IMG/VR virus record: IMGVR_UViG_3300045988_106087
Coordinates: 1 to 62,951 of that record
DNA length: 62,951 bases
Direction: 5' to 3' (one strand)
DNA from: a virus
Program-made: the position numbers and the translations under genes
Part shown: one piece after another, positions 2,969 to 16,382 of the stretch
Numbering within the stretch: position 1 is the stretch's first letter
How the letters are laid out: each line of letters starts with the position of its first letter
The notes under the pieces: generated by a model
What the model saw: the letters and a program-made list of their open reading frames with translations, nothing else
Databases searched by the model: none
What the model was told of the DNA's origin: nothing

Positions 2969-3011
2969 TCCAGTGATGGTGCTGGAGTACAGATAGGACG
3001 GATATAAACAT

Positions 3012-3698
3012 ATGAGTATCAAACCTAAGGCTATGGCCGGGGATATACCGGTGTATTGTTCACATGATAAGATTGTCAGCATTACAAAGGTAGTACCGAA
3101 CCCACGGAATCCAAACATTCACCCGGAGCGGCAGATCGAGATTCTGTCAAAGATCATTCAGGAGCAGGGATGGCGGCAGCCGATAACGATAAGCAGCCGG
3201 AGCGGATTTATTGTCAAGGGCCATGGTAGGTATCTGGCAGCCGTAAAATTCAATGCAAATGATGTTCCGGTAGATTACCAGGACTACGAAAACGAAGCGG
3301 AAGAATGGGCGGACCTTATCGCAGATAACCGCATATCAGAACTAAGCAACATGAATGAGGATTTGCTTGCTGATCTTTTGGGAGAAATAAACGATTTGGA
3401 TTTTGATATTCTCCTAACCGGTATGGAATATGCCGATATTGACAGCCTAATCAATAATGACGAAGCCTTGACCGTGATCGATGAAATAACCACACCAAAA
3501 CCCTCTCATACATACCACGAGAACACTCCACAGTATGATGACAGCACAAGCACAGAAACCCCACAGGAAGAACACATTCAAGAAGACTATGAACACACCA
3601 TCGAAAACAGAAAAGCACAGACCGGCGAGATTGATATTAACGATTTCTCCGAGGACAAATACAAAAATCAATGTCCAAAGTGTAAGTTTATGTGGTGA
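3012..3698 (+). CDS. ParB-like N-terminal domain protein (paralog of 1752..2531) with C-terminal CxxC
   Basis: 'VVPNPRNPNIHP...KGHGRYLA' has the same architecture as the first paralog. The stop overlaps the start of the C5-MTase (TGATG). Confidence 0.75.
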   Translation: MSIKPKAMAGDIPVYCSHDKIVSITKVVPNPRNPNIHPERQIEILSKIIQEQGWRQPITISSRSGFIVKGHGRYLAAVKFNANDVPVDYQDYENEAEEWADLIADNRISELSNMNEDLLADLLGEINDLDFDILLTGMEYADIDSLINNDEALTVIDEITTPKPSHTYHENTPQYDDSTSTETPQEEHIQEDYEHTIENRKAQTGEIDINDFSEDKYKNQCPKCKFMW

Positions 3699-4720
3699 TG
3701 GCTATGCGACCGAAATGGAAATGGTATAAATCTGATCTCTACTATGTGAAAAAGAACGGACTGAAAGTGTTCAGCACCTTTTCATGTGGAGGGGGTTCTT
3801 CCTATGGTTACAAACTGGCAGGCTATGAATTGCTTGGGAATTGCGAGATTGACGAAAAAATAAATGCTATGTATGTGAAGAATCACAAGCCACGATTCAA
3901 TTACAACATGGATATAAGGGATTTCAACGAACTCCAAAATCTCCCGAAAGAACTCTTCGAACTGGATATTCTGGACGGCTCTCCACCTTGCAGCACATTC
4001 TCGATGGCTGGCATCAGAGAGGAAGCATGGGGGAAAGAAAAACGTTTCCGAGAGGGGCAGAAAAAGCAGACTCTTGATGATCTGTTTTTTGCATTCATTG
4101 AAACGGTGGAAAAACTGAAACCTAAGGTTGTTGTTGCGGAGAATGTAGACGGAATGACACGAGGGAAAGCAAAGTATTACATCACCATGGTAATACGTGA
4201 ATTTCAGCGGATTGGGTACAATGTGCAGATTTTCCGGCTTAATTCCATGTTCATGAACGTACCACAGAGCCGGACGAGAATATTCTTTATTGCTAACAGA
4301 ATGGGATTTCCGAAACTTACCATCAAACCGGATGAAAAGCCGATCATGTACAGGGAAATTGCTACCTCGGCGAAAACAATCAATCCTAAAACCGATGGAT
4401 ATAAACTCATGAAATACCATTTAACACCGAATGACAGGAATATAGGGGATATCAATAAGAGATTGAAAGGGAAACCATCCAATTTCAATACACCCATATT
4501 CCGGTTTGATAAAGTCTGCCCTACCATCACGGCAAATGCAGAAGCATACCGGGAAGATGTGTGTTATGTGCCGGACAGAGATATCATATCCGCATCCACA
4601 TTTCCGCAGGATTATGATTTCAACGGAAATCCGGTCAAATATGTGTGCGGTATGAGTGTACCGCCACGAATGATGGAATACATAGCAAAGGAAATTGAAA
4701 AACAATGGTTCAAACGCTGA
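3698..4720 (+). CDS. DNA (cytosine-5)-methyltransferase
   Basis: Motif I 'FSCGGGSSYG', motif IV 'GSPPCSTFS', motif VI 'ENV', motif VIII 'QSRTRIFFIA'. The ORF is open from 3692. ATG 3698 overlaps the upstream stop. Confidence 0.9.
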   Translation: MAMRPKWKWYKSDLYYVKKNGLKVFSTFSCGGGSSYGYKLAGYELLGNCEIDEKINAMYVKNHKPRFNYNMDIRDFNELQNLPKELFELDILDGSPPCSTFSMAGIREEAWGKEKRFREGQKKQTLDDLFFAFIETVEKLKPKVVVAENVDGMTRGKAKYYITMVIREFQRIGYNVQIFRLNSMFMNVPQSRTRIFFIANRMGFPKLTIKPDEKPIMYREIATSAKTINPKTDGYKLMKYHLTPNDRNIGDINKRLKGKPSNFNTPIFRFDKVCPTITANAEAYREDVCYVPDRDIISASTFPQDYDFNGNPVKYVCGMSVPPRMMEYIAKEIEKQWFKR

Positions 4721-5459: not shown

Positions 5460-7052
5460 ATGCCAGTAGTAATTAAACCACAGCCGAAACAGGAGCAGTT
5501 CCTAAGTTCCCCGGCTGACATCGTTATTTATGGCGGTGCTGCAGGTGGGGGAAAAACTTATTCTCTCCTGATGGAAGAGTGCCGGAATAGTCCAAACCCG
5601 AAATTCAATAGCGTTATTTTCCGTAGGAATAACACGCAGATATTCACGAACGGCGGTTTGTGGGATTCTGCCATGGCATTACTCCCTCAAATTGGAGCAG
5701 AGCCGAAAAAGACCCCGAAGCCTACGTTCACATTCCGGAGCGGTGCAAAGGTTGTATTCGATCATCTGGAACGGTACGAGGATTGTCTTGCTTATCAGGG
5801 TTCACAGCTGGTTATGGTTGCGTTCGATGAATTGACGCACTTTGATGAGGATGTATTCTGGTATATGTTTTCTCGTATTCGTTCTGATTCCGGCATTGAT
5901 GGCTATGTACGAGCCACAACGAACCCCGACCCTGATAGTTGGGTTCGGACGTTCATTGACTGGTGGATAGGGGAAGATGGCTTGGCTATCCCGGAGCGAA
6001 GCGGTAAACTCCGCTGGTTTATCCGCATAAATGGGGAGTGCGTCTGGGGAGATTCCAGAATGGAACTACTCAAATACCAGTTTGACGGAGACATCACAGA
6101 AGTAGACAAGTCTATTGATGATACGGATAAACTGTTCATCCTTGACGAAAACGACAGCAAGGCACAAACGGTTATCAAAGAGGGCAGAGAGGGCGTTCTA
6201 TACGTTGTCACAGGAACGAAAGAGTTCTTCCAATGGACAGGCGAAGAATACCACCGATTGATGGCACCAAAGAGCGTGACATTCATCCTCTCCACGTTGC
6301 AAGATAACAAGATCCTGATGCGAAATGATCCGTCATACCTTGCCAATCTGCAATCTCTGCCATATGTGGAGCAGGAGCGTTTGCTTGGCGGCAACTGGAA
6401 CATCCGTCCTGCTGCCGGAATGTACTTCCCACGTGCAAAGGCCAATATCATTGACGAGATCCCGAACGATGTTAAGAAGTGGGTTCGTGCTTGGGACCTT
6501 GCCGGAACAGAGGACAAGAAAAACAATAATCCGGAAGATGGTCCGGCTTATACCGCCGGTGTGCTTATCGGCAAACGGAAGAACGGACGTATTGTGATCG
6601 CTGACGTTATCAATCAGCGGCTTGATTCAAGTGACGTAAGAAGCACCGTTTTGAACACCGCCAAGGCTGACAAGGCAGCATACAAGCGTGTACGCATACG
6701 AATGAACCAAGACCCAGGGCAAGCCGGGAAAGACCAGGCGGCGCAGTATCTCAAATTGCTGTCCGGATTCAGTGTAAATATCGAACGTGAGAGCGGTTCT
6801 AAAGAGACAAGAGCCGAATCCCTATCATCACAATGGATAGGCTTGAAAGGCTCTGAAATGGGCAATGTGGACGTTCTGAATGCACCGTGGACACAATCCT
6901 ACCTTGCACAGATGGACGGCTTTCCGGATAGAAAGTTCAAGGATATGGCCGATGCCAGTTCCACCGGATTCCTCGAACTCGAAAGTATGTCAGGTGGTTC
7001 CGCACCGCCTAAAGATACAGGTAACAGTAAACAATCATATTGGAACAGATAG
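5460..7052 (+). CDS. terL: Terminase large subunit
   Basis: Walker A 'GGAAGGGKTYS', Walker B-like 'VMVAFDELTH', C-terminal nuclease region. Position upstream of the portal gene. Confidence 0.9.
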   Translation: MPVVIKPQPKQEQFLSSPADIVIYGGAAGGGKTYSLLMEECRNSPNPKFNSVIFRRNNTQIFTNGGLWDSAMALLPQIGAEPKKTPKPTFTFRSGAKVVFDHLERYEDCLAYQGSQLVMVAFDELTHFDEDVFWYMFSRIRSDSGIDGYVRATTNPDPDSWVRTFIDWWIGEDGLAIPERSGKLRWFIRINGECVWGDSRMELLKYQFDGDITEVDKSIDDTDKLFILDENDSKAQTVIKEGREGVLYVVTGTKEFFQWTGEEYHRLMAPKSVTFILSTLQDNKILMRNDPSYLANLQSLPYVEQERLLGGNWNIRPAAGMYFPRAKANIIDEIPNDVKKWVRAWDLAGTEDKKNNNPEDGPAYTAGVLIGKRKNGRIVIADVINQRLDSSDVRSTVLNTAKADKAAYKRVRIRMNQDPGQAGKDQAAQYLKLLSGFSVNIERESGSKETRAESLSSQWIGLKGSEMGNVDVLNAPWTQSYLAQMDGFPDRKFKDMADASSTGFLELESMSGGSAPPKDTGNSKQSYWNR

Positions 7053-7062
7053 GAGGTAACCA

Positions 7063-8514
7063 ATGGCAAAAGAAATAGGTAGAATAGGACAACGGAGATA
7101 TTCCGGTGTGTTCTTTGAAGAGTTCTTGACGGAACTAAGAGGTGCAAAGGGAGCGGAAGTCTATACCGAGATGTCGGACAATGACAGCACGGTTGGGGCA
7201 ATTCTCTTTGCGATTGAAAACCTGATGCGTAACTGTGAATTTACAATTGAGCCGGGCGGTAATTCAGCCAAGGACAAAGAAGCGGCGGAGTTCGTGCAAG
7301 GGTGCATGGATGATATGTCTATGACATGGACGGACACGATCAGCGAGATTCTTTCATTCATCACTTACGGCTGGAGTTATCACGAGATTGTCTATAAGCG
7401 CAGAATGGGAAAGACCAGCAACCCACAATCAAGCAGCAAGTTTGACGATGGCTTGATCGGGTGGGCGAAGATTCCAATCCGAGCGCAGGAAACCCTTTTC
7501 GAATGGAAATACAAAGAGGGAACAGATGACCTCATCGGCATGGAGCAATGGTATATCACCGATTGCGACTTTGGACAGGTTGTGATCCCGATTGACAAGG
7601 CTCTACACTTTGTCACACGAAGCCGTAAAGCAAACCCAGAGGGCAGAAGTATCTTGCGTACCGCTTACCGTGACTGGTATTTCAAGAAACGTATTCAGGA
7701 GATCGAGGGTATCGGTATCGAACGTGACCTTGCCGGATTCCCTACGCTGAAAGCACCAGAGGGGATGGACTTGTGGGATGAGGATGATCCTGACATGGTA
7801 AATGCTCTTGCAAATGCACAGCGTATTGTAACAAGCATCCGAAGAGACAGCCGTGAGGGATTGGTACTCCCTTATGGTTGGGAACTTGCTTTGTTGTCCA
7901 CCGGCAGCAGGAGACAGTTTGACACGAACCAGATCATTGAAAGATACAACAAATCCATTGCTACGAGTGTGCTGACCGACTTTGTTCTTCTCGGACATGA
8001 AAGTGTCGGTTCTTTTGCGTTGGCCGACAACAAGACGAAGATGTTTGCGCTTGCCGTTGGTACCTACCTTGATATCATTTGTGAGGTATTCAACAATCAG
8101 GGAATCCCACGGCTCATTGACATGAACGGAGACCACTTCAAAGGCATTACAGAATATCCGTACATGAAGCACGGAGACATTGAGGATGCGAACCTTGAGA
8201 AGATAGGTGCATTCATCAATCAGATGATTGGAAGCGGTGCGCTTACTCCTGACGATGATCTGGAAGATTACATTCGTCAGATCAGCAACCTTCCGGAGAG
8301 AAAGACCAGCGTTCCGATGGAAGAGCGGAAAGGTGACGGCAGCGGTGGAAACAATCCACCTGATGGCAAGGATTCCGAGGGAAACCCGAAAGTAAATCCG
8401 TCAGCGGAGCATAACCGGGAGCAGTACAAGGAAAAGCAGCAGGAGAAAACACCGGATGATCTGGCAGACGAAAAGGAAGCCGAAGAAGCAAAGAAGAGTT
8501 TAGGCAGAAAGTGA
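7063..8514 (+). CDS. Portal protein (Mu gp29 / DUF935-like)
   Basis: 483 aa, follows terL. The N-terminal region is typical of DUF935 portals. Acidic/basic C-terminal tail. Confidence 0.8.
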   Translation: MAKEIGRIGQRRYSGVFFEEFLTELRGAKGAEVYTEMSDNDSTVGAILFAIENLMRNCEFTIEPGGNSAKDKEAAEFVQGCMDDMSMTWTDTISEILSFITYGWSYHEIVYKRRMGKTSNPQSSSKFDDGLIGWAKIPIRAQETLFEWKYKEGTDDLIGMEQWYITDCDFGQVVIPIDKALHFVTRSRKANPEGRSILRTAYRDWYFKKRIQEIEGIGIERDLAGFPTLKAPEGMDLWDEDDPDMVNALANAQRIVTSIRRDSREGLVLPYGWELALLSTGSRRQFDTNQIIERYNKSIATSVLTDFVLLGHESVGSFALADNKTKMFALAVGTYLDIICEVFNNQGIPRLIDMNGDHFKGITEYPYMKHGDIEDANLEKIGAFINQMIGSGALTPDDDLEDYIRQISNLPERKTSVPMEERKGDGSGGNNPPDGKDSEGNPKVNPSAEHNREQYKEKQQEKTPDDLADEKEAEEAKKSLGRK

Positions 8515-8524
8515 GGTTAAGAGA

Positions 8525-9031
8525 ATGGAATTAGAATTTGCTAAATACATAGGAACGAAACTGATTAAGGCAAAGCCAATGACAAGGGGAGAATACAACG
8601 CATATCGTGGCTGGACTTTACCAAAGAATGAGAACCCGGACGATGATGGTTATCTGATTGTCTATGTAGATTCAGACGATTATGTTTCCTGGTCACCGAA
8701 AGATGTCTTTGACCGTGCATACCGCTCCTGTGATGGTGGCATGACCTTTGGCGGTGCTATTGAACTGTTAAAGATGGGATTCAAGGTTGCAAGAAAAGGC
8801 TGGAACGGCAAGGGAATGTTTATCTATTTGCAGGACGGATCCTATCCGTACTTCCACCAGCTGAAAGAGGATGTGCAGCGGAAACTTATTGATTCGAATT
8901 GCACGAATGATAGCGGAGCGGTCACTATCTGCCCTCATATCGACATGAAAGCCGCTGACGGTTCTATTGTGATCGGGTGGTTAGCATCTCAGACGGATAT
9001 GCTTGCCGATGATTGGGTTGTCGTTCGATAG
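8525..9031 (+). CDS. DUF2829 (Tad2-like) domain protein with an extra N-terminal ~70-aa domain
   Basis: The C-terminal half 'MTFGGAIELLKMGFKVARKGWNGKGMFIYLQ...WLASQTDMLADDWVVV' matches the DUF2829 pattern. The N-terminal part is 'KAKPMTRGEYNAYRGW...SWSPKDVFDRAYR'. Confidence 0.75.
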   Translation: MELEFAKYIGTKLIKAKPMTRGEYNAYRGWTLPKNENPDDDGYLIVYVDSDDYVSWSPKDVFDRAYRSCDGGMTFGGAIELLKMGFKVARKGWNGKGMFIYLQDGSYPYFHQLKEDVQRKLIDSNCTNDSGAVTICPHIDMKAADGSIVIGWLASQTDMLADDWVVVR

Positions 9032-9187
9032 AAATGCTACTGTGAGAGCGTAGAGTGTGCCTATTTGCCATTTTAAATGTTTACTTGAAGAAATACCTAC
9101 CTAGAAAGTAAAAGTCTAAAATAGGGCAAATATGAGCCACGCAAAACTTATCCACCGGCTTATCAACACTATCAACAAAAATCAGTA

Positions 9188-9216
9188 TTGCAAAATACCA
9201 AAAAATGTAATATAAT
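9188..9216 (+). promoter_or_regulatory. Sigma-A type promoter (TTGCAA-17-TATAAT)
   Basis: -35 at 9188-9193, -10 at 9211-9216, 17-nt spacer. Confidence 0.6.
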
Positions 9217-9222
9217 GTTTTT

Positions 9223-9296
9223 GGACAATTGTTTTGCTGGAAAGAGACTTTTTCATAACTCCTCTAAGGGACGTGGTTCTTGCCACGTCCCTTTTT
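9223..9296 (+). ncRNA. Candidate ~75-nt small RNA (promoter-to-terminator unit without a credible ORF)
   Basis: Bounded by the promoter at 9188-9216 and the intrinsic terminator at 9268-9296. No RBS-preceded ORF inside. Confidence 0.35.
9268..9296 (+). terminator. Intrinsic terminator
   Basis: GGGACGTGG-ttcttg-CCACGTCCC followed by TTTTT. Confidence 0.75.
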
Positions 9297-9308
9297 GTTA
9301 TTCCACTA

Positions 9309-9337
9309 TTGAAATTATTTTGAAATAATGTTATAAT
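9309..9337 (+). promoter_or_regulatory. Sigma-A type promoter with extended -10 (TTGAAA-17-TGtTATAAT)
   Basis: -35 at 9309-9314, -10 at 9332-9337. Confidence 0.6.
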
Positions 9338-9346
9338 ATTCCATGT

Positions 9347-9451
9347 GATAGCGAGTATTAGCGGTGCTTGCCATCCAGCAACTGAATACTTGCTATCATA
9401 CAAATGCGTATTGGTATCGGTGCCGCTAACACCTTTACTGATGCGCTTTTT
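9347..9451 (+). promoter_or_regulatory. Structured 5' leader: long hairpin plus terminator-like hairpin with U-run (possible attenuator/riboregulator) upstream of the 9478 CDS
   Basis: GATAGCGAGTATT (9347-9359) pairs with AATACTTGCTATC (9385-9397). GCGTATTGGT (9406-9415) pairs with ACTGATGCGC (9437-9446) and is followed by TTTTT. The two loops are complementary (TTAGCGGTGC / GGTGCCGCTAA, with G-U pairs). Confidence 0.45.
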
Positions 9452-9477
9452 GTGTAGAAAGAAAATGAGGTATAAGA

Positions 9478-10383
9478 ATGGCAGATGTAAAATGGATAAA
9501 GATAACAACGGATATATTTGACGATGAAAAGATATTATTGATTGAGAGCCTTCCGGAATCGGATGCTATTATCGTCATATGGTTCAAATTGCTATGTCTT
9601 GCAGGGAAGATGAATAACAGCGGTGTGTTTGTGATGAATAACCGAATTGCATACACAGATCAGATGCTTGCTACTATCTTCCGGAAAAAAGAAGCCACAG
9701 TAAAACTAGCACTAAGCACATTTGAAAAATTCGGAATGATTGAAATTGTCAATGGTGTGATAACGATACCGAACTGGGACAAGCACCAAAGCCTTGACGC
9801 ATACGAGCGGAAAAAGAAAAGAGACAGGAACTATCAAGCGGATAGAAGAGCGAAACAAAGAGCACTTGTTGGCGAATCGTCTGACACATCGTCTGACACG
9901 TCGTCTGACACATCGTCTGACACGTCGTCTGACGTCGCTCCCCTAGAAGAAGATATAGATATAGATAAAGATATATATAATAATAATTGTGCATTTGACA
10001 ATGCACATTGCACAAATAACAAGCCAACAAAAACACAAATCAATGCATTCTTTGAATCTGTTTGGAAACTGTACCCTGTCAAAAAGGGGAAAGGTCAGGT
10101 ATCGGATGCAAAGAAAGCAAAGCTATATTCCGTTGGCTATGATGAGTTATGCAGAGCAATAGAACGATACAAGGCAGAACTGGAGAAGGATTCAGATTGG
10201 AGAAAGCCACAGAACGGAAGCACATTCTTTAATTCCGGATATGTGGATTATCTGGATGCGAACTATCAACCACAAGAGCGTAAACCAAAACATAAGAATC
10301 AGTTCAATAACTTTCATCAAAGGGAAGTAAAGAAAACCGAAATGGACGATTTGGAAAAGAAACTTTTGAGAGGGGAGAGGTAG
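9478..10383 (+). CDS. Phage replisome-organizer N-terminal domain protein with DnaD-like C-terminal region
   Basis: The N-terminus 'WIKITTDIFDDEKILLIESLPESDAIIVIWFKLLCLAGK...' is typical of phage_rep_org_N. The C-terminus 'FESVWKLYPVKKGKG...TFFNSGYVDYL' is typical of phage replication proteins. Confidence 0.7.
   Translation: MADVKWIKITTDIFDDEKILLIESLPESDAIIVIWFKLLCLAGKMNNSGVFVMNNRIAYTDQMLATIFRKKEATVKLALSTFEKFGMIEIVNGVITIPNWDKHQSLDAYERKKKRDRNYQADRRAKQRALVGESSDTSSDTSSDTSSDTSSDVAPLEEDIDIDKDIYNNNCAFDNAHCTNNKPTKTQINAFFESVWKLYPVKKGKGQVSDAKKAKLYSVGYDELCRAIERYKAELEKDSDWRKPQNGSTFFNSGYVDYLDANYQPQERKPKHKNQFNNFHQREVKKTEMDDLEKKLLRGER
9877..9935 (+). repeat. In-frame tandem repeat, about 4.9 copies of 12 nt (TCGTCTGACAC[A/G]) encoding (SSDT)n
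   Basis: Read directly. Lies in the linker of the 9478 CDS. Confidence 0.95.
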
Positions 10384-10386
10384 GCC

Positions 10387-11340
10387 ATGATAAAAACATA
10401 TAAGCAGGTGGACATCGAGAAAGTAGGGAAGATCATCCCAATAACCGCATTGATAGCCACGAAAAAAATCAAAAAATATCTGGATGCAAAGGAGCCGGAA
10501 CTTGTTTTCTTTCTGCATAACCTTTGGAATAACCAGGGCAAGGCAATTACATACAAGGAATTGAGAGAAGCAATCATTGACGGATATCTCTCGGAGAAGT
10601 TGCTTGAAGAGTGGTATCAGGACTATACAAAGTTTGTAGTGGATAAGGTTGCTCCGATGTGGGCGGATGCCATGAAAGAAGCAAACTCCGAACTGTACAA
10701 GAATCCGAAGTTCTATTTTGATCCGATGCAGCAGGAAGTTGTTGACTGGACCAATACGAGGGCGGCCATGTTTGTTACCAACGTAACGAAAGAACAGGTT
10801 GCCGGAATCCGTGAGGTTGTCAAAAGAGCATCCCAGCTGAACGATATGAACGTGGACGAACTTTCAAGGGCAATCCGTCCGATGGTTGGACTTGACTACA
10901 GACAGAGCATTGCAAACATGAACTATTACACGAAAATGATCGAGAACGGTGTAAAGCCGAATACCGCTCTGGAGAAGAGTATCAAGTATTCCGCAAGGCA
11001 GAACAGACATCGTGCATACCGGATTGCAAGAACGGAACTCGTATTTGCATACAATCAAGGATCATACTACGGAACCAAGCAAGCACAGGAGCAAGGACTT
11101 CTCGGAAGAGTGGAAAAGGTATGGTGTACGGCAGAGGATGAGCGCACTTGTGAGATATGCGGAGCATTGGAAGGGAAGAGGATTGCCATGGATGATGATT
11201 TTGATTTTAAAACAAAACTCATTGAGCCTGGTATCAAGAGAGTACCTCCTGCGCATCCTCATTGTCGCTGCACGGTTATCTTTGATGAGGTTGAGCCACC
11301 GATCCAAGCGGTGGAGATTCCTGAAATCATAAAGCAATAA
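10387..11340 (+). CDS. Head morphogenesis protein, SPP1 gp7 / Mu F family
   Basis: 'RIARTELVFAYNQG...WCTAEDERTCEICGALEGK...PPAHPHCRC' is the hallmark of Phage_Mu_F. Confidence 0.9.
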   Translation: MIKTYKQVDIEKVGKIIPITALIATKKIKKYLDAKEPELVFFLHNLWNNQGKAITYKELREAIIDGYLSEKLLEEWYQDYTKFVVDKVAPMWADAMKEANSELYKNPKFYFDPMQQEVVDWTNTRAAMFVTNVTKEQVAGIREVVKRASQLNDMNVDELSRAIRPMVGLDYRQSIANMNYYTKMIENGVKPNTALEKSIKYSARQNRHRAYRIARTELVFAYNQGSYYGTKQAQEQGLLGRVEKVWCTAEDERTCEICGALEGKRIAMDDDFDFKTKLIEPGIKRVPPAHPHCRCTVIFDEVEPPIQAVEIPEIIKQ

Positions 11341-11722: not shown

Positions 11723-12835
11723 TTATGCGATTACTTCTTTGATTTCCTCAATAACTCTCTTTGCAGAATACCTCGCATTATTTGTCAGCTGTCTTTGCCA
11801 AGCCGTATTCTTTGGGGACCAGCGGAAACCGTTCTTTTTCAAAATATCCCTTACTTCAGGATCCGGCTTTCCGTCAAAGATAAGTTGTAGCCGCATCTGT
11901 TCTGTATTCTCTACCACCTTGCAAACATCTGTTTCCAGTTCTGACGTGCCGTTTTCTTTTGCCGCCTTTAGGCTTTTAAGCCTTGATTCAACTCTACGGA
12001 TATTTGCGTTGTTGTTCCGGAGCGCATAGTCCGGATAACCAACCCTTCCGCAGAAGTCAGGCTCACGAAGCTGTTTTATTTGGGTGTCTGAATAACCCAT
12101 ATCTCTCAACTTTGCATTGCCTTTTTCTGTGTCTTTCAACCGGACCGCTCTATTTGCGGCTTTCATTTCTTCCTGATTATCTTTCAGCTTTTTCAATTTG
12201 CTTTCCAGCTTTTCTATAGCGTCCGCATCACCGGACTTGATCTGCTCACGGCCATAGAGGATGTTTTCAATCTTTGTTTTGATTTCCTGGATATGCTTGT
12301 ACTCTTCCATGTTGCGTTCCCATGCCGCATTCTGCTTTTCTTTCTTTCTTACCGGGAAGTTACCTGCTCCGGAAATCATCACAGATGGACACATACATCC
12401 AATTCTGATTTCATCGTTCATATTGTCGGCCATTTTCTTTGCGTACCGTTCAGCAAGCCTGTAGGCTCTGTCAGCACTATCCGGTCTACGCTCCGCTACC
12501 ATATCGGCAATACCGTAGCATTCATCTACCATTGCACGATAGTTGGCCGTTTTTGTTCCCGGAACATAATCCCTAAATGACATCATATCATTTGCTGTCT
12601 TTGCTGCAGTTTCATTGATTTCAAAATACTTTCTTTCACTCATGTTTTGTACATTCCTTTCTTCTACAATGTCAAAGAATCCTCTTTTTCTCAAACTGGA
12701 TTCCACTTTGTCAAGAAACTCTTGAACCTGTTCCTTTGTCCAGTCCGGATGCTCCTTTTCAATCTGCATCCTAGTTTCTGATTTCCATGCAATATATTCT
12801 GAATCTCTCATGATGTCCACATCCTTTCTAATCAT
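11723..12835 (-). CDS. Hypothetical protein resembling conjugative-element / polyvalent-protein-associated domains (DUF3560-like C-terminus)
   Basis: 370 aa. The C-terminal 'LIFDGKPDPEVRDILKKNGFRWSPKNTAWQRQL' and the central coiled coil are recalled from MGE proteins of unknown function. Alternative start at 12811. Confidence 0.5.
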   Translation of the reverse strand: MIRKDVDIMRDSEYIAWKSETRMQIEKEHPDWTKEQVQEFLDKVESSLRKRGFFDIVEERNVQNMSERKYFEINETAAKTANDMMSFRDYVPGTKTANYRAMVDECYGIADMVAERRPDSADRAYRLAERYAKKMADNMNDEIRIGCMCPSVMISGAGNFPVRKKEKQNAAWERNMEEYKHIQEIKTKIENILYGREQIKSGDADAIEKLESKLKKLKDNQEEMKAANRAVRLKDTEKGNAKLRDMGYSDTQIKQLREPDFCGRVGYPDYALRNNNANIRRVESRLKSLKAAKENGTSELETDVCKVVENTEQMRLQLIFDGKPDPEVRDILKKNGFRWSPKNTAWQRQLTNNARYSAKRVIEEIKEVIA

Positions 12836-13733: not shown

Positions 13734-16382
13734 TTGAAAGCAAAATCATTTTCCGAAATAGTAAAACTGAATAAATCTGGTGCGGATATAGACAAGTTCA
13801 ATCCGTATCACGACAGCCTTGGCAGATTTACTACCAGCGGTGGCGGTGCATCCTTTTCTGGTACGTTGCTGCATGGTAGTCCAAACAAAGGCATCAAAGA
13901 GTTTGACATCAATAGAGCCGGATCCAATACAGGCTCTGGAGAAAAACTGTTATTCTTCACGAACGATAAGCAGATGGCAGATGATTTTTCCTATGAGCGG
14001 TTGCCCGGTTCTACAAAGTTTATGAACGTCAGAGGAAAAAAGGGAGAGGTTTACCGAACAAAGGTGAGGATGAAAAAGCCGCTCGACTTTAGGAATTTAT
14101 CAGATGACGATATCAAGGCAATAAAAGAACTTGATGCGGATGGGATTCTTACCGACAAGGATATCAAGATGATGGCCGGAATGAAGAATCACGGATCATT
14201 GAAAGCCGGTCTTGATCTACGACCTGAAACGTTGAGCCGACTTGGTTATGACGGCATCATTGCGAACACAGATAACGGAAAGACAGAGTTTGCGGTTGTT
14301 GATAGCAAACAGACTAAGATAATACATAAGTCATTTTCGGAAATTTTGAAATCAAGTAAACAAGTAAGTCTTGTTGAAAGATGGCAGAAAGACCCGAACT
14401 CATTTAAGGTTTTGAACGAAGTAGAGGATCTTGACAAATTTAACCCCTACCATGATAGCTTAGGCAGATTTGCTACCGGTGGCGGTGCGGCATCATTCAC
14501 TTGGAAACCTGGGGCAAGTACCGCTCATGATAATGCTATCGCACGAGAAAAGGAGCGCAATGCTTCATCTGGTGGTGGATCTGAAAGTAAACAGACAGAT
14601 GGAAGAGGTCATGTTACACCAAAGAGCCACAAGGAACGGCTCGACATTGTAAAGCGGGAATTAGGTTGCGATGATAAGCAGGCAAAGAAGTACGCAAAAA
14701 GCATATACTCATTTACCTCGGAGAACTACGAAGCCATCCGGGCATATCAGAACGGTGTGAAAAATGATTATACGAAAAAATTCAGCCGTGACGCAAAAAA
14801 TGCTGAGGATTACATAGAAAAAGCACCGAAATGGAACGGTGGAACACTTTACAGAGGTATCAATTTAGAAAATGGAGATGCGAATACTGTTTTCAAATCT
14901 GGAACAGAATTGGATATGCGAGGAACTTCCTCATGGAGCAGTGATAAAGGGGTTGCTGATAACTTCACATTTGGAAGCGGAACAAAGGTTGTGTTCCAAT
15001 GCGACAAAGTAAGCAAGGCAACTTCCGTAACGCATCTGTCCGATAACCCATCCGAAAAAGAGGTGCTTGTATCAAAAGATACAAAGTATGTTTCCAAAAA
15101 AGTATCGAAAAAGGGAAATGTTTACTATGTCTATCTCGACGAAGTTACCAGTACAGCAAAATCTTTCTCGGATATATTGAAGTTCAACGATAACCACGAC
15201 CATCTCGGACGATTCTCTTCCGGCAGCAGTACTGGAGCGGCGGTTGCAAGTGAAACCTCGTCTGGTTCCTATGGTAACGTTGATGAATTTCAAAAAGACA
15301 AAAAGGAAACATGGAGCGCAACAAGCGAATTTTCAGAAAATAAAAAAGGTGCGGAACAGCATTTCCAAGCCTACAAGGATTTTTATAGTAAATATCAAAA
15401 GGGAACAGCCAGCAAAGACAACTATTACTTTGATACCATGGCAGAATTTGACCCGATGAAAAGCAGACCTCGCAGACAGCCTGATTATGTGAGCCGTGAT
15501 AGAAACGGAAAAGTATCAAGCGAATATTGGTACACAGAAGATGGAGTGGTTAGGGGTAGCGATCATTGGGGAGAAGGAGTTGCTAGTTGTGATTGGTCCT
15601 TGAAAGGTGTCACATCCGGAAGCAGACCACTTGAAATAGAGCATACCGGGAAAAAGTATGGCAAGGCAAAGTGGGAAGATTTTGTTCACAAACCTACCGT
15701 TGCAGAAATCAACGGCGAAAAGGTTATGTCCAGCTTCCACAACATGAGTGAGAAAGGCATCATCACGCACAAAGGAACAGATTATGAATATAACCGCTGG
15801 GAGAGCAAATGGGAACCAACCACTAGCAGTACAGCAAAGTCCTTTTCCGAATCGGAGGTGAAAGAATTGAATAATGCAGATACGGAACTTTGTAGTCCTC
15901 CATTTAATATCACAAAGGCAGACGAAGATAAAAGGCTCGTCTTTGGATGGGCCTTGGTGTCTGCCGATAAGGACGGAAACAAACTCATTGACCGCCAAGG
16001 TGATATGGTAGAGCCTGACGATTTGGAAGATGGAGCATATGAGTATGTTTTGAACTTCCGGGATGCCGGAGAGGAACATATCGGAACGCTCCGAAAGAAA
16101 GCACGAATGGTTGAATCGTGCGTATTTACTCCGGAGAAGATGAAAGCCATCGGAATACCAGAGGGAACAATCCCGGTAGGCTGGTGGATTGGCTTTTATG
16201 TTGACGATGATACGACATGGGAGCGGATCAAGTCCGGAAAGTACAAAATGTTTTCAATTGAGGGAAAGGCGGTTAGGGAGCCTATTGAGGATTCCCAACC
16301 GCATCCAACCGGGAAAATTGCAAAATCCTTTTCAGAGATCATTGAGAAATTTAACCCTTACCACGATAGGCTAGGACGATGA
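13734..16382 (+). CDS. Polyvalent multidomain protein: ART-like domain, ADP-ribosyltransferase (R-S-E, exoenzyme-type) domain, unknown 'SDHWG' domain and C-terminal XkdF-type prohead protease domain
   Basis: TTG start after AGGAGG. ART motifs: 'TLYRG' (14847-58), 'GTSSWSS' (about 14926-43), 'SEKEVLV' (ExE, 15054-62). XkdF-like region 'KADEDKRLVFGWALVS...GEEHIG...MVESCVF...WWIGFYVDDD..W..IKSGKYKMFSIEG' (about 15876-16299). Five internal copies of the AKSFSEILK/FNPYHD..GRF linker. Confidence 0.8.
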   Translation: MKAKSFSEIVKLNKSGADIDKFNPYHDSLGRFTTSGGGASFSGTLLHGSPNKGIKEFDINRAGSNTGSGEKLLFFTNDKQMADDFSYERLPGSTKFMNVRGKKGEVYRTKVRMKKPLDFRNLSDDDIKAIKELDADGILTDKDIKMMAGMKNHGSLKAGLDLRPETLSRLGYDGIIANTDNGKTEFAVVDSKQTKIIHKSFSEILKSSKQVSLVERWQKDPNSFKVLNEVEDLDKFNPYHDSLGRFATGGGAASFTWKPGASTAHDNAIAREKERNASSGGGSESKQTDGRGHVTPKSHKERLDIVKRELGCDDKQAKKYAKSIYSFTSENYEAIRAYQNGVKNDYTKKFSRDAKNAEDYIEKAPKWNGGTLYRGINLENGDANTVFKSGTELDMRGTSSWSSDKGVADNFTFGSGTKVVFQCDKVSKATSVTHLSDNPSEKEVLVSKDTKYVSKKVSKKGNVYYVYLDEVTSTAKSFSDILKFNDNHDHLGRFSSGSSTGAAVASETSSGSYGNVDEFQKDKKETWSATSEFSENKKGAEQHFQAYKDFYSKYQKGTASKDNYYFDTMAEFDPMKSRPRRQPDYVSRDRNGKVSSEYWYTEDGVVRGSDHWGEGVASCDWSLKGVTSGSRPLEIEHTGKKYGKAKWEDFVHKPTVAEINGEKVMSSFHNMSEKGIITHKGTDYEYNRWESKWEPTTSSTAKSFSESEVKELNNADTELCSPPFNITKADEDKRLVFGWALVSADKDGNKLIDRQGDMVEPDDLEDGAYEYVLNFRDAGEEHIGTLRKKARMVESCVFTPEKMKAIGIPEGTIPVGWWIGFYVDDDTTWERIKSGKYKMFSIEGKAVREPIEDSQPHPTGKIAKSFSEIIEKFNPYHDRLGR

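Follow-up and report, generated by a model that had tools for sequence, protein, structure and literature searches.

A Phage Protein Combining a Tad2-Like Domain with a gp68_N-Type Domain, a Candidate Module of the Anti-Signaling Toolkit

Sponge proteins are the main known route by which phages silence nucleotide-based immunity such as Thoeris and CBASS (cyclic oligonucleotide-based antiphage signaling system). Tad2 of phage SPO1 is the founding sponge for glycocyclic ADP-ribose (gcADPR) and inhibits type I Thoeris. In HgmTad2, SptTad2, and SaTad2, a long insertion between strands β2 and β5 forms a second pocket, which binds the cyclic dinucleotides cGG, 3',3'-cGAMP, and cUG (Li et al., bioRxiv 10.1101/2023.11.15.567273). 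Sponge modules are also found fused to one another, as in Acb4-Tad2 of Pasteurella phage Pm86, Tad2-Sequestin, and Sequestin-Acb4 (Tal et al., bioRxiv 10.1101/2025.07.12.664507) and in Acb4-Sequestin of phage Ab09 gp59, and a June 2026 preprint reports that the RyR half of gp68, a protein encoded by Pectobacterium phage vB_PatP_CB1, binds gcADPR (bioRxiv 10.64898/2026.06.04.730250). Here, we describe an intact open reading frame of 168 amino acids (positions 8525 to 9031, plus strand; ATG start, TAG stop) in the IMG/VR virus record IMGVR_UViG_3300045988_106087, the whole 62,951-nucleotide stretch of which was analyzed and is referred to below as the window. We consider it likely that the product is a two-module phage counter-defense protein, in which a Tad2 sponge is joined to an anti-signaling module of the type seen in the N-terminal half of gp68 (gp68_N; the N-domain below). 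The main new result is a census of this N-domain, the two-domain architecture itself being already common in databases.

The C-terminal half of the protein (amino acids 73 to 167; 8741 to 9025, plus strand) matches the Tad2-like family DUF2829 over the entire Pfam profile (positions 1 to 73 of 73; E 2.4e-27; 95.7 bits with a cutoff of 25). The initial annotation had placed a DUF2829 domain at about residues 72 to 168, which agrees well with this match, but had assigned it accession PF10991; the family is PF11195. Among sequences of solved structures, the domain matched HgmTad2/AcrIIA7 (8KBI; E 1e-23), pdAcrIIA7 (9KZR), SptTad2 (8WJD), ModTad2 with histidine ADP-ribose (His-ADPR; 9EIB), and SPO1 Tad2 (8SME). 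An AlphaFold2 (AF2) monomer model of the full-length protein, with a mean predicted local distance difference test score (pLDDT) of 93.6, contains in this half helices at residues 75 to 83 and 156 to 160 and strands at residues 87 to 90, 99 to 103, 138 to 142, and 164 to 167. Foldseek searches with the model recovered SptTad2, HgmTad2, ModTad2, and SPO1 Tad2 at E values from 1.5e-10 to 3e-5 and target-normalized template modeling (TM) scores of 0.71 to 0.88, with a probability of 1.00 for entries 8WJD, 8KBI, 9EIB, 8V3E, and 8SMF. In HgmTad2, gcADPR is contacted by W21, N22, G23, M76, A78, V84, W87, L88, S90, T92, and D93 (Li et al., bioRxiv 10.1101/2023.11.15.567273), and all 11 residues have identical equivalents in the window protein (W93, N94, G95, M141, A143, V149, W152, L153, S155, T157, and D158), which together with the Foldseek matches upholds the proposed membership in the Tad2 family. 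Because the domain match, the fold, and the complete set of pocket residues are all retained, sequestration of the type I Thoeris signal is, as judged from sequence, the most likely activity of the Tad2 half. By analogy with the solved Tad2 proteins, the C-terminal module would assemble into a homotetramer, and the predicted tetramer would hold 1''-3' gcADPR and 1''-2' gcADPR, the Thoeris signals made by Toll/interleukin-1 receptor (TIR) domains, in pockets between protomers. With gcADPR sequestered, the ThsA effector would never be switched on. Other signals derived from ADP-ribose, for example, the ModTad2 ligand His-ADPR, are possible further ligands.

A different activity for the Tad2 half is suggested by the deposition of its closest solved relative under the name AcrIIA7 and by the annotation "anti-CRISPR protein" carried by some phage homologs: a basic groove of the tetramer might bind tracrRNA and prevent assembly of the Cas9 ribonucleoprotein. 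The five basic residues probed in pdAcrIIA7, K58, K66, K71, K93, and R101, map to K83, K91, K96, K114, and R119 of the window protein, all conserved. K83, K91, and K96, however, lie within the conserved core motif K.G.KVARKGWNGKG, and their conservation may not reflect RNA binding. An independent study failed to reproduce Cas9 inhibition by HgmTad2 or its homologs, and the activity of pdAcrIIA7 is abolished by its N-terminal extension and appears only upon deletion of that extension; the window protein carries a folded N-terminal domain as well, although of a different kind. We therefore regard an AcrIIA7-type function as very improbable and retain gcADPR sequestration as the preferred reading of the Tad2 half.

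The N-domain (amino acids 4 to 66; 8534 to 8722, plus strand) was recognized through its similarity to CB1 gp68, with which BLASTP aligned residues 4 to 63 (residues 3 to 63 of gp68) at 38% identity and an E value of 8e-10. Twelve residues are invariant or nearly so in N-domain sequences (Y8, K12, M19, Y24, G42, Y47, Y53, S55, W56, P58, F62, and Y66), and the gp68 alignment shares K12, M19, G42, Y47, Y53, S55, W56, and P58. The initial annotation had described the Tad2 domain as fused to a separate N-terminal domain of about 70 amino acids, and this is indeed a real conserved domain, matched on its own by PHROGs 9467, 32732, and 18865 (amino acids 4 to 70; E values down to 2.6e-19). Its AF2 monomer model (pLDDT, 93.7) consists of an unstructured arm (residues 1 to 13), a β-strand (14 to 20), an α-helix (21 to 28), two further strands (41 to 47 and 54 to 58), and a second helix (59 to 65). 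The arm bears the conserved residues Y8, G10, and K12 yet is modeled in the monomer without any secondary structure, a combination that fits strand exchange; in the gp68 crystal, the N-domain swaps its β1 strand with the partner protomer, giving a five-stranded sheet (bioRxiv 10.64898/2026.06.04.730250).

No match to the N-domain was found in Pfam at E values up to 10, in NCBIfam, or among the sequences of the PDB, apart from weak Pfam matches to Tudor_5 for two of its homologs (E 0.07 to 0.15); in the PDB copy used, neither the sequence nor the fold search brought up the gp68 structure. A Foldseek comparison of its fold with the PDB gave nothing better than an E value of 1.5, with PWWP and chromodomain structures as the best matches, and a search of BFVD returned only homologous phage proteins, including the RyR-domain protein of Yersinia phage TG1. 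Several known identities were tried and rejected. A degenerate duplicate of Tad2 was considered in view of a common R-G-W motif, a hairpin, and a W-S-x-x-D helix, but hhalign gave this relationship a probability of 0.1%, and SPO1 Tad2 was matched by Foldseek only at an E value of 6.5. Sequestin, a helical dimer of about 60 to 80 amino acids, was dismissed, as no PF21825 match was found at E values up to 10 and the β-α-β-β-α fold is not helical. Lockin, an elongated β-rich hexamer, is reported to be absent from INPHARED genomes, whereas the N-domain occurs in 154 phage records of that collection, which argues indirectly against their identity. Finally, PF13876 is the Acb4 family, and in CP51_007 and crAss002 gp38 it covers the C-terminal half of the protein, not the N-domain. 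The Pfam name of PF13876 still refers to "N4 Gp49," although N4 gp49 matches PF11195 and not PF13876, and the PF13876 half of CP51 gene 007 has a weak sequence match (E 0.02) to SPO1 Acb4 (PDB 9E4W).

A profile of the N-domain, searched against 1.84 billion representative proteins, matched 2975 protein clusters at E values up to 1e-3 and 1407 at E values up to 1e-10, and Pfam partners were assigned for the best 150. Within these 150, the N-domain was accompanied by Sequestin (PF21825) in 40 cases, by Tad2 (PF11195) in 35, by Acb4 (PF13876) in 13, and by the Acb2/Tad1 hairpin (PF24729) in 6, with WDGH, AP2, and HNH_3 found once each; sponge families make up 94 of the 97 Pfam-assigned fusion partners. 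The RyR sponge domain of CB1 gp68 is a fifth sponge family joined to the N-domain. Clostridium phage CP51 and crAss002 likewise encode the same N-domain fused to PF13876. A word-index search with the N-domain gave 5240 matches, and about half of the top 120, which were inspected, are stand-alone proteins of 73 to 99 amino acids. The domain is N-terminal in 256 of 258 sequences compared; cases of a C-terminal position were seen after Tad2 (P0307), Acb4 (P0385), and Sequestin (P0280), and in a triple fusion, Acb4-N-Sequestin (P0393), it occupies the middle. Sequestin was itself found through a search for Pfam families that occur in fusions with Tad2 or Acb4 (Tal et al., bioRxiv 10.1101/2025.07.12.664507), and because the N-domain has no Pfam match, a Pfam-based query for fusion partners would miss it.

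The fusion, presented as unusual in the initial annotation, turned out to be widespread: phrog_872 covers residues 4 to 167 of the window protein (E 3.4e-53), and 91 phage records, including those of Vibrio, Pseudomonas, Klebsiella, and Escherichia coli phages, cover at least 80% of it in a tblastn search. The accompanying statement that members of the Tad2 family are typically single-domain proteins of about 90 amino acids is accurate for characterized proteins only, the two-domain form being a family in itself (phrog_872). The original observation was confirmed, and its interpretation is partly supported, namely as to the Tad2-family domain and its fusion to a separate N-terminal domain; whether or not the fusion broadens or changes ligand specificity, as the initial annotation suggested, both outcomes are conceivable.

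About 14 of the top 120 word-index matches, and roughly one-third of the best 150 clusters, carry N- or C-terminal extensions without a Pfam match, and these extensions could be further sponge domains; proteins with triple fusions or such extensions include P0393, P0367, and P0150 to P0234. A stand-alone N-domain gene is clustered with genes for DUF3307, Acb4 (PF13876), and Sequestin (PF21825) at positions 3001 to 4167 of L017, a contig from Logan accession SRR26786790, and in another contig (L015, 2425 to 3246), an Acb2/Tad1-hairpin gene lies two genes upstream of a stand-alone N-domain gene. The two contigs are N4-like, and in each the cluster lies a short way upstream of the terminase. Additional anti-signaling candidates could be DUF3307 and the small, unassigned neighboring genes.

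Because its fusion partners belong almost exclusively to sponge families, a second binding activity residing in the N-domain is plausible. We lean toward regarding the N-domain as a module in its own right within the anti-signaling toolkit and not as a mere appendage. Our proposal that it binds a further immune signal is a tentative one; candidate ligands would be His-ADPR, N7-cyclic ADP-ribose (N7-cADPR), cyclic nucleotides (mono- or oligomeric), or the decoy nucleotides on which guard systems such as Panoptes rely. With at least the same reserve, we suggest that N-domains could make up a family, so far undescribed, of phage sponges for immune signals or of similar autonomous anti-signaling modules. 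In the tetramer, the four N-domains would pair into two swapped dimers. Several points weigh against the two-module reading as a whole, its expression included. The N-domain is net acidic. Many sponge pockets, unlike the N-domain, are positively charged. Tad2 and Acb4 tetramerize without an N-domain, and the terminator-like and promoter-like sites described below are consensus matches of a kind that is no more frequent here than in shuffled sequence. In addition, gp68_N by itself shows no activity toward type I Thoeris, for which the C-terminal half (gp68_C) alone is sufficient (bioRxiv 10.64898/2026.06.04.730250); this negative result excludes type I Thoeris only.

The behavior of gp68 would also suit a purely structural role, in which the N-domain is a clamp for dimerization or stabilization, the window protein is a gcADPR sponge with a single activity, and the fusion adds no specificity. 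In the RyR Tad (gp68) crystal, not only is the β1 strand of the homologous domain swapped between protomers, but both domains contribute to the dimer; the inactivity of gp68_N and the activity of gp68_C by itself point in the same direction, as does the conserved N-terminal arm that is left unstructured in our monomer model. A clamp would, however, have nothing to clamp in the stand-alone proteins that form about half of the inspected word-index matches, and the occurrence of the N-domain at the N terminus, at the C terminus, and in the middle of a triple fusion is what independent sponge modules display. The ability of Tad2 and Acb4 to oligomerize without it counts against a clamp as well, and a sponge could well be built as a swapped dimer, given that Sequestin is a dimer with pockets at its interface. 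On balance, a role confined to clamping seems doubtful to us, and we continue to favor an autonomous anti-signaling module.

The second pocket known from HgmTad2 calls for a separate evaluation. The β2-β5 insertion of the window protein comprises amino acids 104 to 137 (8834 to 8935, plus strand; aligned to HgmTad2 residues 33 to 72), is modeled by AF2 with confidence values of 92 to 97, and has a length of 34 residues compared with 41 in HgmTad2. The long insertion pointed out in the initial annotation is therefore real, but it is not special to this gene, being a known feature of the HgmTad2/SptTad2 subtype. Its presence, together with a fold resembling those of cGG-bound SptTad2 and HgmTad2 (TM scores, 0.74 to 0.75; root mean square deviation, approximately 3 Å over 103 columns), would be compatible with a dual sponge whose insertion binds cGG, 3',3'-cGAMP, or cUG, so that CBASS would be blocked too. 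The HgmTad2 mutations S47A, F70A, and R31A/N85A abolish binding of cGG and cGAMP (Li et al., bioRxiv 10.1101/2023.11.15.567273), and none of these four residues is kept in the window protein: R31 is replaced by Q103, S47 is deleted, and F70 and N85 are replaced by I135 and I150, whereas the aligned SptTad2 keeps R31, F70, and N85. Further contacts are also altered, with P32 deleted, D34 changed to glycine, L36 to tyrosine, and T71 to cysteine, and the R/N signature was seen in none of 95 distinct sequences aligned that combine the N-domain with Tad2. Because the four required residues are lost and the signature is absent from these 95 homologs, the window protein probably does not bind cGG or cGAMP, and a dual sponge of the HgmTad2 kind is improbable. 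The second pocket appears instead to be the product of replacement or of rapid divergence, and it may bind something else or nothing.

The insertion falls within a hypervariable segment of the gene. Comparison in 50-nucleotide bins with a syntenic relative, L004, in which the order of genes is the same as in the window (large terminase gene TerL, portal, fusion gene, replisome organizer, and MuF), showed flanking bins to be 82 to 96% identical, while identity in the bins from 8801 to 9000 (approximately amino acids 99 to 151) falls to 32 to 60%, with insertions and deletions. The L004 counterpart of this segment lies at 6277 to 6430, and the L004 protein is 152 amino acids long, with an insertion that is short and unrelated. 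The mosaic boundary within the gene is sharp, and the segment covers the insertion as well as the β5-β6 portion of Tad2. Its pattern resembles the outcome of cassette replacement or of strong diversifying change of the second pocket. At least six types of insertion occur among close two-domain homologs, which vary very little in the N-domain and in the core motifs of Tad2. A hypervariable insertion in an otherwise conserved gene marks the second Tad2 pocket as a rapidly changing site.

The position of the gene was described correctly at the outset: it directly follows a Mu-type portal gene (7063 to 8514, plus strand; PF06074 Portal_Mu, E 6e-34; phrog_113, E 1.2e-91), with a gap of 10 nucleotides between the portal stop codon and the start codon. 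A ribosome-binding site, GAGG (8513 to 8516, plus strand), read from the sequence 8 nucleotides before the ATG, overlaps the portal stop codon, and the portal gene is in turn preceded by the small and large terminase genes. This placement is kept in the closest relatives, L004 and L006. In another relative, L007, whose portal is 63% identical, the portal is directly followed by MuF, and the fusion gene is found upstream of the terminase; in the lineage of the window, the portal and MuF genes, neighbors in L007, are separated by the fusion gene and the replisome-organizer-like gene. Because L007, N4-like phages, and crAss002 carry the gene at other sites, functional coupling to the portal was rejected.

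In other contigs, too, N-domain genes, either alone or fused, are flanked by the portal gene on one side and by major capsid or tube genes on the other (L022, 3001 to 3249; L025, 3001 to 3249; L024, 3001 to 3285; and L001, 4001 to 4465). The phages in question, with the N-domain in their head modules, are of unrelated types (SU10-like, with a T7-like portal, and siphovirus CP51, L001), and one of the genes overlaps the portal stop codon. This recurrence may reflect late coexpression or a tolerated insertion site. Conceivably, the N-domain could be a tag that targets the capsid or portal, or the protein could be a head component, with the sponge packaged and delivered along with the DNA; the gene directly follows the portal in the window, L004, and L006, and in Clostridium phage CP51 it comes behind portal and MuF. 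Stand-alone N-domain genes immediately follow an SU10-type portal in L022, lie two genes behind a T7-type portal in L025, and come behind both portal and MuF in L024. The arrangement in L007, however, and the location of the gene in the early or replication region of N4-like phages and crAss002 speak against a head tag, gp68 is not among the virion proteins flagged as confirmed by mass spectrometry in the CB1 record, and stoichiometric sequestration requires many copies. Packaging or a head function is in our estimation highly unlikely. The gene position would better suit a moron-type insertion with late coexpression alongside the structural proteins than a structural role. The gene would apparently be the last of the terminase-portal transcription unit, and it would follow that the sponge protein is made together with the late structural proteins.

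Behind the gene lies a noncoding gap of 446 nucleotides (9032 to 9477), in which no Rfam match was found; a search of the whole window for tRNAs also gave no match. The gap contains a terminator-like hairpin (9266 to 9293, plus strand; 12-bp stem with seven G-C pairs and a T tail) and, ahead of the next gene, a promoter-like TTGAAA-17-TATAAT sequence with the TG of an extended -10 element (9309 to 9337, plus strand; 11 of 12 positions), both identified as consensus matches only. These two predicted elements suggest a transcription unit boundary inside the head module. The next gene (9478 to 10383) encodes a protein with the N-terminal domain of phage replisome organizers (PF09681; E 4e-46) and is followed by a MuF-like head morphogenesis gene (10387 to 11340). 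The interval between portal and MuF is an odd site for a replication-type gene. Within the gene at 9478 to 10383, a perfect 24-nucleotide tandem repeat with a 12-nucleotide subperiod (9876 to 9933) encodes (SDTS)n and is followed by an acidic (DI/DK) repeat (9951 to 9979).

To judge from its gene content, the window appears to represent all or nearly all of the genome of a tailed phage that has not been cultivated. A scan of its proteome identified, among others, baseplate J, sheath initiator, tape measure, and resolvase genes; the closest relatives are contigs of approximately 62 to 65 kb. The G+C content is approximately 42%, the genes for RecU, YopX, and the XkdF protease are of Firmicutes type, and the best match to the terminase among collected phages, at 50% identity, belongs to an unannotated human-fecal phage. 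A polyvalent-type protein of 882 amino acids (13734 to 16382) combines a pair of ADP-ribosyltransferase domains (ART-PolyVal, E 2e-11; ART, E 9e-5) with a serine protease domain of the XkdF type at its C terminus; a similar gene is present in L004, and the protein is likely a head-associated or injected effector. On the opposite strand within the morphogenesis region, a gene at 11723 to 12835 (minus strand) matches phrog_19458 (E 2e-98), for which the PHROG annotation is primase, and has no Pfam match; it is followed by two small reverse-strand open reading frames. Genes for C-5 cytosine DNA methyltransferases (PF00145; best E value, 2e-39) occur twice, at 3692 to 4720 and in a second open reading frame, and probably serve in anti-restriction. 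The proteome scan also gave matches to a ParA-like ATPase and to a papain-fold glutamine deamidase toxin domain.

The fusion evidence assembled here for the N-domain is of the same kind as that which led to Sequestin, and we consider this family, as a candidate sponge or anti-signaling module, a lead worth pursuing. If the N-domain binds a different signal, it would represent a new sponge family that is present in model phages such as N4, and it would help to identify immune signals that are as yet unmatched by a known phage countermeasure. Were the N-domain to be a sponge, the window protein would be a genuine two-signal sponge.

Compared with the described single-domain sponges, the window protein is closest to HgmTad2/AcrIIA7 from a human-gut metagenome (PDB 8KBI to 8KBM and 8WJC; bioRxiv 10.1101/2023.11.15.567273), its best sequence match, with approximately 48% identity over the domain, the same long-insertion subtype, and the same gcADPR contacts throughout. 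HgmTad2 differs in being a single domain of 103 amino acids, whereas the window protein has an extra N-terminal domain of 70 amino acids and an insertion shorter by seven residues and has not kept the cGG/cGAMP-binding residues R31, S47, F70, and N85. SptTad2 (8WJD; Foldseek E 1.5e-10) shares the fold but is likewise a single-domain protein, and it retains the R/F/N signature that the window protein has lost. SPO1 Tad2 (8SME/F/G and 8WJE; Foldseek E approximately 3e-6) has the same fold in a single domain with a short insertion and binds no cyclic dinucleotide.

Extensions of a Tad2-fold core at the N terminus have a precedent in pdAcrIIA7 of Phocaeicola dorei (9KZR; Nat Commun 2026, PMC13133391), but there the extension is a 48-amino-acid "head" of two helices, unrelated in sequence to the N-domain; this head is reported to mask binding of tracrRNA, which the headless form binds (PMC13133391). 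RyR Tad, i.e., CB1 gp68, carries the same N-domain fused to a gcADPR sponge (bioRxiv 10.64898/2026.06.04.730250) but differs in that its C-terminal sponge is an all-helical dimer resembling RyR Repeat12 (PF02026) and not a Tad2 tetramer; its gene adjoins the primase gene in an anti-signaling hot spot of N4-like phages. The architecture of the window protein, N-domain plus PF11195, recurs in gp49 of E. coli phage N4 (phrog_872; 160 amino acids, PF11195 at residues 83 to 159, approximately 42% identity), the gene for which lies at the end of the early/middle region and adjoins the virion RNA polymerase gene; in the literature library that was searched, no paper was found that connects N4 gp49 with Tad2. 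The known multi-sponge fusions resemble the window protein in combining within one chain small modules that each also occur alone, a feature that has been used to predict new sponges (bioRxiv 10.1101/2025.07.12.664507), and they differ in that both of their modules are proven sponges, whereas the N-domain is a candidate only. Placed among these systems, the window gene is, on its predicted product, a Tad2 sponge that has a noncanonical, variable second pocket and is joined to a gp68_N-type module.

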